This document shows positions 38,078-38,390 of a stretch of 64,000 nucleotides of DNA, one piece after another. The translations under genes were made by a program, and so were the position numbers. Source of the DNA: an uncultured Clostridia bacterium (GTDB lineage: Bacteria > Bacillota > Clostridia > TANB77 > CAG-508); NCBI GenBank assembly GCA_944391855.1, contig CALXVB010000003.1, forward strand, positions 1 to 64,000, read 5' to 3'. Positions within the stretch are counted from its first letter, which is position 1. Each line of letters starts with the position of its first letter. The notes beneath the pieces are model-generated. The model was given only the letters and a program-made list of their open reading frames with translations. It did no database searches and was not told the origin of the DNA.

Positions 38078-38390
38078 TGGAGCCACTTGTCCGACTTGAA
38101 CGGACGACCTACTGATTCATACTACTATAATTTTCATTACCACCAAAGGTGTTTGTAGTCTGGACTTTCTCTTTACCATAGCTTATTTGCCTTAGGTACA
38201 CCGTATAAAGTCTCTACACTCGAAGATATAATCTTCTAGCTCGGGATTAGCATATATATAATTTAGCCTTCCCCGAATTAGCGGTGTCCACTATATATGT
38301 TTCCACATATAGGTGCAAGATAGTTCAAAATAAAACTTAAGTTTTATCTATCCCACAAGTCAGTTGCTCTACCAACTGAGCTAAAGTGGC
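38078..38390 (-). tRNA. tRNA-Thr (anticodon UGU) interrupted by a group I intron; exons 38390-38355 and 38117-38078
   Basis: The joined exons give GCCACTTTAGCTCAGTTGGTAGAGCAACTGACTTGT|AATCAGTAGGTCGTCCGTTCAAGTCGGACAAGTGGCTCCA. This is a perfect 76-nt cloverleaf with GCCACTT/AAGTGGC acceptor and loop CT-TGT-AA. Confidence 0.85.
38118..38354 (-). ncRNA. Group I intron (IC3-like, 237 nt) in the tRNA-Thr anticodon loop
   Basis: Follows U36 and ends in G. Internal guide CUAUCUUGCA (38323-38314) forms P1 with a U-G wobble at the splice site. Core GUGUAGAGACU..ACGGUGUACCUAAGGCAAAUAAGCUAUGG (38219-38176) closely resembles the Azoarcus tRNA-Ile intron core as recalled. No ORF inside. Confidence 0.8.

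Follow-up and report, generated by a model that had tools for sequence, protein, structure and literature searches.

A tRNA gene that is interrupted inside its anticodon loop raises two questions: can it still yield a tRNA, and how did the interrupting sequence come to lie there? Both are posed by a 64,000-nt stretch of DNA from an uncultured Clostridia bacterium (contig CALXVB010000003.1 of assembly GCA_944391855.1, positions 1 to 64,000; hereafter "the window"), in which the minus strand of positions 38078-38390 holds a tRNA-Thr(UGU) gene split by 237 nt. An initial annotation had read these 237 nt as an IC3-like group I intron in the last gene of a Lys-Glu-Thr operon, and had supposed that the gene is expressed and self-splices. 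Our observations cover the structure of the gene, the fold of the intron and its covariation, the distribution of the intron, its presence and absence among strains, its linkage to a gene for an HNH endonuclease, and a remnant of that endonuclease gene in the window. Taken by itself the intron is ordinary, a further example of the IC3 introns that interrupt tRNA anticodon loops. What makes it of interest is the size of the family to which it belongs, the invisibility of that family to standard annotation and its linkage to a tRNA-Thr-associated HNH gene, of which the window holds a relic. We are confident of the explanation developed below as a whole, comprising a genuine intron, probable splicing and a proposed two-part mobile history.

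The split tRNA-Thr(UGU) gene and its intron

Run in intron mode, ARAGORN calls a split tRNA-Thr(tgt) of 76 nt with a 237-nt intron at 36/37 (cttgt, intron, aatca), in agreement with the exons originally quoted (38390-38355 and 38117-38078, minus strand), and when the exons are joined and submitted by themselves the call is again tRNA-Thr(tgt), the cloverleaf being normal. Exon 1 (38355-38390) comprises tRNA positions 1-36 and ends in the anticodon U34 G35 U36; exon 2 (38078-38117) comprises positions 37-76, encodes the CCA end and recurs as a pattern in at least 120 metagenome contigs. Since the bases flanking each boundary differ (last exon-1 base U vs last intron base G; first intron base G vs first exon-2 base A), the splice boundaries are unique and the junction cannot slide. 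The same check with a tRNA caller fails when default settings are used: default ARAGORN does not call the split Thr gene in the window and returns tRNA-Lys(UUU), tRNA-Glu(UUC) and an unrelated tRNA-Lys(CUU), and Rfam at its gathering threshold reports those tRNAs alone, with neither the split Thr gene nor the intron. The missing default calls reflect the sensitivity of the tools rather than absence of the gene.

The intron itself (38118-38354, minus strand) is free of open reading frames (ORFs), begins with GGGAUAG and ends with AUG, its omega-G lying at 38118; its G+C content is 35%, that of the window 26%. In a permissive scan of 701 nt, the Rfam model Intron_gpI (RF00028) matches 38342-38141 (minus strand) over its whole length (1-253) at 39.3 bits and E = 1.8e-8. 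The covariance-model check proposed at the outset is thus borne out in extent and E-value and falls short in score, which lies under the gathering score of 50. This shortfall weighs against the identification, as does the failure of RF00028, run with default filters in E-value mode on 62 kb of relatives, to report any of the relatives' 8 introns; Rfam is therefore unusable for a census of the Thr(UGU) intron family. A low score is, however, expected because the seed of RF00028 is without bacterial sequences, according to Williams 2020 (bioRxiv 10.1101/2020.01.27.920355).

To evaluate the fold, the structure was drawn explicitly on the window sequence and then scored on an alignment of 76 sequences (the window and 75 relatives; 339 columns), to which the covariation results below refer. 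All helices from P1 to P9 can be drawn, and every pair is a standard one in the window. The P1 helix that the initial annotation had put forward is present and covaries: the internal guide CUAUCUUGCA (38323-38314) pairs with a strand made up of exon UGU and intron GGGAUAG (38357-38348), and a P1a hairpin (38347-38330) completes this element (38314-38357, minus strand, as are all helices here). P1 comprises 10 bp and is 99.5% paired, with compensatory changes in 3 P1 pairs and in 7/7 P1a pairs, and the U36.G wobble at the 5' splice site occurs in 74/74 distinct sequences. The P2 hairpin (38291-38312), capped by an invariant GAAA tetraloop (L2; 38303-38300), has compensatory changes in 8/9 pairs. 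There follow, within 38218-38287, the 5' strand of P3 (38287-38282), P4 (38276-38271 with 38246-38241), P5 (38267-38250) and P6/P6a (38240-38218). P4 and the anticodon stem are invariant, and P5 and P6a covary; P5 contains a motif resembling an 11-nt receptor (GCUAAA..UAUGC), and its closing pair occurs as five standard pair types.

The catalytic half is equally complete. Within 38162-38214 lie the 5' strand of P7 with its bulged A (38214-38208), the 3' strand of P3 (38203-38198), P8 (38197-38175), J8/7 and the 3' strand of P7 (38167-38162), such that the P3/P7 pseudoknot is present and carries a bulged nucleotide in P7. P8 contains a perfect CCUAAG..UAUGG receptor; P3 and P8 covary, and P7 is invariant in 5/6 pairs. 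By homology with the Azoarcus and Tetrahymena introns, we take P7 to hold the guanosine-binding site. The last 58 nt, in which extra hairpins had been noted, do contain hairpins; these are not extra, being the standard P9, P9a and P9b of IC3 tRNA introns (38121-38159; L9b is a GAAA tetraloop), followed by AUG with the omega-G. All three covary, the same layout is found in Arg.5Ug seeds, and the omega-G column is invariant. The GAAA loops L2 and L9b and the receptor motifs of P8 and P5 are conserved throughout the alignment, and speak for docking as motifs only.

Across the alignment, 98.6% of cells are paired under this structure vs 35-39% when the partners are slid, and 47/96 pairs show changes on both sides. 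The covariation score is 0.315 vs 0.127 in shuffles, none of which (0/500) reaches 0.315, with the proviso that the shuffle control is generous, given that the aligned sequences are relatives, one of which served for drawing the structure. Relatedness does not account for the outcome of the slid control or for how many pairs change on both sides, and chance is excluded because of the 75 homologous split genes in other species together with these statistics.

The affiliation of the intron was assessed against 12 of the 26 representative bacterial tRNA and transfer-messenger RNA (tmRNA) introns of Williams 2020, with identity taken over aligned columns. The closest of the 12 is Bbo3.Arg.5Ug (80%, 161/201 columns), followed by fMet.2Ug and Leu.3Ug (75% each); Azoarcus Ile2.5Ug is 71% and Rba53.Thr.5Ug 70% identical. 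The best-matching seeds, i.e., Arg.5Ug, fMet.2Ug and Leu.3Ug, are all classical IC3 introns. The core string of the Azoarcus intron given in the initial annotation matches the Azoarcus seed of that alignment. Judged by seed homology, the full P1-P9 fold and covariation, the element belongs, as had been suspected, to the IC3 group I introns typical of bacterial tRNA genes in the classical sense, and our confidence in its identity and function is very high. Of other kinds of insertion, an archaeal-type or protein-spliced intron is out, the host being bacterial and a group I core being present, and so is an insertion sequence or miniature inverted-repeat transposable element, there being no repeats or ORF and a ribozyme fold.

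How such a gene would yield a tRNA can be proposed from these features. The Lys-Glu-Thr operon would be transcribed from its own promoter and the intron would fold from P1 to P9, its GAAA tetraloops L2 and L9b likely docking, as they do in Azoarcus, on 11-nt receptors of P8 and P5. Exogenous guanosine in P7 would attack the phosphate after U36 (at the U.G wobble in P1); the terminal G (38118) would then take guanosine's place, and ligation of the exons would give the 76-nt tRNA. Because P10 would comprise only about 2 bp, the anticodon stem would probably help to align the exons. Self-splicing of the tRNA-Thr intron is thus inferred from its conserved architecture.

Is this gene in use? The alternative is that the split gene is a pseudogene and that an intact tRNA-Thr(UGU) elsewhere does its work, and our view of 64 kb of the genome leaves room for such a second copy. 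The features of the locus argue for function. Its exons are flawless, as the initial annotation had stressed, and identical to functional-looking intron-less orthologs. The invariant catalytic core and covarying stems across 76 species indicate purifying selection on splicing, as judged from sequence comparison. Further, five contigs from other samples, with an identical downstream dehydrogenase and 99.7-100% identity to the window, all carry the identical intron, or its 3' end where the contig begins inside the intron, so the allele appears fixed in conspecific contigs. Among about 110 exon-2 matches (from a scan described below), 2 lie outside the Lys-Glu-Thr context, with no sign of a common paralog. 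Lastly, ACA accounts for 55% of Thr codons in the long ORFs of the window, and tRNA-Thr(UGU) therefore reads the main Thr codon. We consider a dead copy very improbable, and the locus is probably a working tRNA-Thr(UGU) gene, the last in its Lys-Glu-Thr operon. As a separate observation, three conspecific contigs from independent samples (L278, L279 and L280 in our numbering of loci) start inside the 3' part of the intron, a pattern suggesting that the tRNA/intron region is prone to assembly breaks.

Distribution of the intron and polymorphism among strains

Relatives of the intron were sought in species-representative genomes with a pattern consisting of CTTGT and, after it, the P3/P4 and P4'/P6 strands. 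At least 119 loci matched, and at least 75 were typed by ARAGORN as tRNA-Thr(tgt) with a 205-244-nt intron at 36/37. The hosts, uncultured gut Clostridia and Bacilli of low GC content, number at least 75 species, and their record titles include 'Clostridium sp. CAG:245, CAG:492, CAG:508' and metagenome-assembled genomes (MAGs) from human, rabbit, sheep and goat gut. The window's pre-tRNA (intron and exons) is 75-95% identical to those of the 75 listed relatives; the flanks are 68-78% identical, and the gene order is the same. Two operon contexts occur, namely Lys-Glu-Thr in Clostridia (including the window) and Val-Tyr-Gln-Lys-Thr in MAGs labelled Bacilli.

For an unbiased look at intron-less alleles, metagenome contigs were scanned with exon 2 only. 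As the initial annotation had anticipated for relatives, intron-less alleles exist: exon 1 abuts exon 2 in 59 of the 120 loci, and about 51 have the intron. Alleles of both kinds share one operon context, Lys(UUU)-Glu(UUC)-Thr(UGU), on contigs of 24-31% G+C, and the intron-less genes are therefore orthologs and not paralogs. The polymorphism extends to the strain level. Contigs with and without the intron can be 99-99.7% identical over kilobases on both flanks and differ by an exact intron-sized indel, and 3 of 9 strain-level clusters (>=98% identity) hold both intron states. A metatranscriptome artefact behind the intron-less contigs is out, as a neighbouring HNH gene is also gone from them at the DNA level. 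A search of IMG/VR viral contigs for the Thr-plus-core pattern returned no Thr(UGU) 36/37 intron, and thus no sign of a phage carrying the window's intron type.

These scans also returned material at the margins of the family. The intron-less tRNA-Thr(UGU) of L199 (metagenome) has the same exon 2 and lies in an Asp-Leu-Thr-Gln array, where ARAGORN calls long 'introns', perhaps spuriously, in SeC(tca) and Leu(taa); the sole other context without Lys-Glu is that of L233 (Asp-Thr-Asn). Two Bacillota MAGs ('Tb.RUG'; L029 and L082) have Thr(UGU) introns of 205-206 nt without P1a and with a different, very short P1 intron strand, and keep HNH sequence downstream. A tRNA-Tyr(GUA) of an uncultured gut Clostridia MAG (L091, from 1621) is called with a 214-nt intron at 36/37, which may be a relative of the Thr intron. 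Group I introns of tmRNA genes in Hymenobacteraceae (L019 2929-3524 and L036 5907-6492; RF00023 and RF00028 at 80-82 bits) are of a known kind and matched because the search pattern is generic for IC3 cores. A group I intron of Ectobacillus panaciterrae (L047 2951-3237, minus strand; RF00028 75.7 bits), 2.3 kb from a PreQ1 riboswitch, has no surrounding tRNA called by ARAGORN, as is likewise the case for L068 and L108.

The HNH gene beside the tRNA and the proposed history of the locus

The intron does not come and go alone. In each near-identical strain pair, the member with the intron has a second insertion of 360-400 bp that starts 46-61 nt after the tRNA, and six strain pairs with flanks 99-99.7% identical differ by both indels. 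The protein specified by this second indel is 118-135 aa long, has a CxxC..CxxC finger in its N-terminal part and contains EVEHIDGN and NLxLLCPNCH motifs. It reaches 22.1 and 25.6 bits with Pfam HNH (cutoff 21.4) and E = 1e-18 with HNH-endonuclease families of PHROG, and a PDB sequence search returned only weak matches to McrA-like HNH domains. Intact copies of this HNH gene, 45-100 nt beyond the tRNA, are present in 27 metagenome loci and, among the matches listed, in 25 genome loci.

The association holds across the metagenome set. Among the 43 scorable loci with the intron, the HNH gene is intact in 27, interrupted by a stop in 1, partial in 7 and absent in 8; the corresponding figures for the 54 scorable intron-less loci are 1, 0, 16 and 37. 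Intact HNH genes thus accompany 27/43 alleles with the intron vs 1/54 without it (Fisher p = 7.8e-12, odds ratio 89).

The window carries the trace of such a gene. The last 21 codons of an HNH gene, STYKGANLNHGRKSRKKYTK followed by the stop (37976-38038, minus strand), directly follow the terminator of the tRNA operon; tblastn detects them at 90% identity over 20 aa, and the five conspecific contigs have this remnant as well. An alignment with L083 and L095, which are the closest relatives and have introns about 95% identical, places their intact 129-aa HNH gene at the remnant's position. A gene for a FabG-like short-chain dehydrogenase (Pfam adh_short; 37252-38010, minus strand) is otherwise context only; its ATG (38010) and first dozen or so codons (37972-38010) overlap the remnant in another frame, which probably explains the remnant's survival. 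The 5' end of the dehydrogenase in the window's lineage seems to have been built from endonuclease-gene sequence. The dehydrogenase of L135, a species further removed, instead possesses a ribosome-binding site and a start of its own. The remnant, which the initial annotation had overlooked, is the more informative part of the locus.

These observations suggest a history. A Thr(UGU) intron family would have spread through uncultured low-GC gut Clostridia and some Bacilli, the intron being the RNA half of a two-part mobile unit whose other half would be the free-standing HNH gene inserted just behind the terminator of the tRNA operon. The window's species has lost all but 21 codons of the HNH gene by deletion, and the copy is for that reason probably an immobile relic, stable after invasion and persisting because it splices. 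The allele states found in public metagenomes, i.e., an empty site (e.g., L208), intron with intact HNH, intron with decayed HNH (the window) and an intron-less gene with an HNH remnant, fit the picture of a homing cycle. We consider it slightly more likely than not that the intron is mobilised by the HNH enzyme, which would cut tRNA-Thr alleles lacking the intron.

The same strain pairs bear on a history of descent with loss only, in which the intron is old, immobile and occasionally lost precisely, and the HNH gene, a selfish insertion unrelated to it, owes its association with the intron to shared haplotype ancestry. Synteny is conserved, intron divergence roughly tracks that of the flanks, and HNH remnants in 16/54 intron-less loci show that some intron-less alleles descend from invaded ones; nor is a co-conversion signature visible. 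Such a history must nevertheless accommodate exact intron indels between strains 99-99.7% identical on both flanks, in three separate clusters and coupled to an HNH indel each time. To lose intron and HNH gene together, precisely and time after time at strain level, is a less economical account than gene conversion of a single linked unit, and we regard loss alone as improbable.

Relatives of the HNH protein in phages suggest where the endonuclease may have come from. Among 50,697 phage records searched by tblastn, 198 have a match, 48 of these near full length. The best (56% identity) is an unannotated ORF of Enterococcus phage iF6 (L281 2396-2893; MT909815.1 around 41124-41504), which abuts the 5' end of an intron-less tRNA-Thr(UGU) inside the phage tRNA array; the tRNA features of MT909815.1 are annotated on the strand opposite to ARAGORN's. 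In 9 of 15 phage loci inspected, the HNH ORF has a tRNA-Thr as its nearest tRNA, on the same strand and on either side. The anticodon is UGU in 8 (iF6, XbC2, vB_Kpn_B01, EC.P1, MET_P1_137_112, LPCS28, SCTP-2, GAP32) and GGU in 1 (Jada), and for at least 8/15 to adjoin Thr(UGU) the binomial P is 3.4e-5 on the rough assumption of 10% chance adjacency. T5 F-TflIV matches the HNH core only. We tentatively suggest, at somewhat less than an even chance, that Thr(UGU) intron and HNH gene together form a currently active two-part mobile element in the chromosomes of uncultured Clostridia from human and animal guts. The HNH enzyme would derive from tRNA-Thr(UGU)-specific phage endonucleases and would cut in or near the anticodon loop, the intron would confer immunity, and both parts would be copied into the broken allele.

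Several observations weigh against mobility driven by the HNH enzyme. The phage tRNA-Thr(UGU) genes beside the homologs share little with the window's tRNA beyond the anticodon loop, which is too little to define a shared HNH target. No co-conversion tract is seen, mismatches in nine strain pairs with and without the intron being at background density and unclustered at the insertion site, a result that is itself uninformative. Among the genome representatives listed, all of which have the intron, the HNH gene is intact in 25, has stops in 3, is partial in 9 and is absent in 24, the last group including all scorable 'Bacilli' (Val-Tyr-Gln-Lys-Thr) copies. One intron-less metagenome contig (L185; 2418 nt, 1.9x coverage), the sole such allele, has an intact HNH gene; either the allele is a true intermediate or the contig is a chimera assembled at low coverage.

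What these points may favour instead is a genuine IC3 intron beside an independent HNH gene, which would target the 3' region of tRNA-Thr or its own intergenic site ('intronless homing'), the intron about 100 bp away being co-converted or separately inherited. L185, the introns without any HNH gene in the 'Bacilli' context and in the 24 listed representatives, and the phage homologs beside intron-less tRNA-Thr genes are all compatible with such independence, and free-standing endonucleases of phage tRNA clusters are known to mobilise flanking DNA (T4 SegB; PMC2330249). Set against it, 27 of the 28 intact HNH genes in the unbiased set adjoin an allele with the intron. Moreover, a chromosome with an endonuclease against its own major tRNA-Thr gene needs immunity, and the intron splits the anticodon loop, the sole sequence common to all contexts. 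We consider an independent HNH gene rather unlikely, and the data do not separate it from collaborative homing, in which the HNH enzyme would act for the intron.

Further phage tRNA arrays with group I-like introns were seen among IMG/VR viral contigs (L242, L245, L248, L254, L260-L262, L266, L268, L273, L275). Their introns lie in tRNA-Met(CAU) at 33/34 (207-215 nt), Leu(UAA), Thr(GGU), Gln(CUG) and Val(CAC), and L254 and L273 encode a distant HNH homolog (37% identity).

Operon context, significance and known systems

The Thr gene is preceded on the minus strand by tRNA-Lys(UUU) (38506-38581; ARAGORN, Rfam tRNA 66.5 bits) and tRNA-Glu(UUC) (38395-38469; ARAGORN, 64.4 bits), the first and second genes of the operon. 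That the operon has its own promoter and terminator had been asserted. The intrinsic terminator after the CCA end (38038-38073, minus strand; a 15-bp stem at 38073-38041, then a U7 run) has a hairpin of -17.4 kcal/mol and z = -6.0, with 0/200 shuffles equally stable; a simple terminator scan missed it. The promoter-like site TTGACA-17-TAAAAT (38620-38648, minus strand) matches the consensus at 11/12 positions; it is a consensus match alone, since the region holds 2 such sites vs 3.0 expected from shuffles and thus no excess. The operon's 5' leader contains a 12-bp hairpin, CUUGCGUUUAC..AAACGCAAG, at 38590-38616 (minus strand), after the -10 box and ahead of tRNA-Lys, which the terminator scan detected on the opposite strand.

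The family has consequences for annotation. Rfam at gathering thresholds, default ARAGORN and similar pipelines miss the whole Thr(UGU) intron family, because of which the MAGs of at least 75 gut Clostridia and Bacilli species will seem to lack tRNA-Thr(UGU). The missed tRNA decodes the commonest Thr codon of these AT-rich genomes, and the gap affects tRNA-based completeness scores.

There are consequences, too, for the mobility of tRNA introns. Nakagawa 2026 (PMC13011429) concluded that such introns seldom move because few of them encode an endonuclease. The strain-level polymorphism described here argues against the view that tRNA introns without a homing endonuclease gene (HEG) are essentially immobile, whether the HNH enzyme homes on behalf of the intron or independently of it. 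If the active two-part element is real, it would represent collaborative homing in a bacterial chromosomal tRNA gene, contrary to the inference of immobility for HEG-less tRNA introns. If the HNH enzyme targets the insertion site, the system would offer a natural bacterial example of mobile introns assembled from separate RNA and protein parts.

How novel is the host gene? The initial annotation placed a Thr host outside the known set. This is correct for the four classical settings, i.e., Leu(UAA), fMet, Ile(CAU) and Arg(CCU), and does not hold more widely: the list of Williams 2020 has 21 classes, including Thr.5Ug and Thr.3Ug, and Nakagawa 2026 describes tRNA-Thr(GGU) 36/37 introns of Patescibacteria that RF00028 misses at standard thresholds. 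That survey comprises 333 tRNA introns from 4,934 complete genomes, which represent 18 phyla; IC introns make up 81%, and insertions occur at almost all positions of the anticodon loop. Thr as a host isotype is thus unsurprising given these two studies. For the Bacillota phyla, Table S5 of Nakagawa 2026, as excerpted, has Arg(TCT) 34/35 only in Bacillota and one Asn(GTT) 35/36 in Bacillota_A, with no Thr(TGT); presumably the Thr(UGU) family in Clostridia was missed by the 2026 survey since its hosts are uncultured MAG lineages.

Among characterised introns, the Arg(CCU) (Arg.5Ug) type is close in design. Its 36/37 position is the classical Agrobacterium case (Reinhold-Hurek and Shub 1992, as cited in PMC13011429), and it shares with the window intron the insertion after nt 36, U-1, the omega-G, a compact P1-P9, the P9/P9a/P9b(GAAA) arrangement and a 3' end in ...GUAUG. 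The window intron differs in its host, Thr(UGU) of low-GC gut Firmicutes, in being AT-rich (35% GC), in its extra P1a hairpin and in scoring under the Rfam gathering threshold. The IC3 intron of Azoarcus tRNA-Ile(CAU), on which the structural picture of IC3 ribozymes is modelled, likewise has the 36/37 insertion, a near-identical J6/7-P7-P3-P8 core string, GAAA tetraloops in L2 and L9, and CCUAAG..UAUGG receptors in P8 and P5; the window intron has the compact architecture without P5abc or P7.1/7.2. The two are 71% identical over aligned columns, or 52% relative to the longer sequence, and Azoarcus has a single P9 hairpin whereas P9 of the window is longer and branched. By host, insertion at 36/37, U-1 and omega-G, the window intron belongs with the Thr.5Ug class of Williams 2020, yet the seed of that class, Rba53, has the anticodon GGU, is high in GC and is distant in sequence (70%). 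The tRNA-Thr(GGU) introns of Patescibacteria share the Thr host, 36/37, U-1 and omega-G, and differ in being classed as IA or 'divergent' and not as IC3.

The HNH gene has counterparts of its own. Free-standing endonucleases occur in phage tRNA clusters, such as the HNH enzymes F-TflI/II/IV of T5 and the GIY-YIG enzyme SegB of T4 (PMC2330249). They too are encoded by small ORFs wedged between tRNA genes; however, those are phage genes beside intron-less tRNAs, whereas the gut HNH gene is chromosomal and paired with an intron.

Collaborative (trans) homing, which joins an intron to a separate endonuclease, is known in two phage systems, namely F-CphI with the psbA intron of cyanophage S-PM2 and mobE of Aeh1 with the nrd intron (PMC3984707). 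The likeness lies in an ORF-less intron with an endonuclease gene beside the intron-bearing gene, and in the joint inheritance of intron and endonuclease, which are jointly absent from near-identical genomes. This layout is found in the window's relatives and not in the window itself, where the endonuclease is already degenerate (the 21-codon remnant). The known cases reside in phage protein-coding genes, whereas here the setting is a bacterial chromosome and a tRNA gene, and the partner is a small HNH protein with putative cleavage activity.

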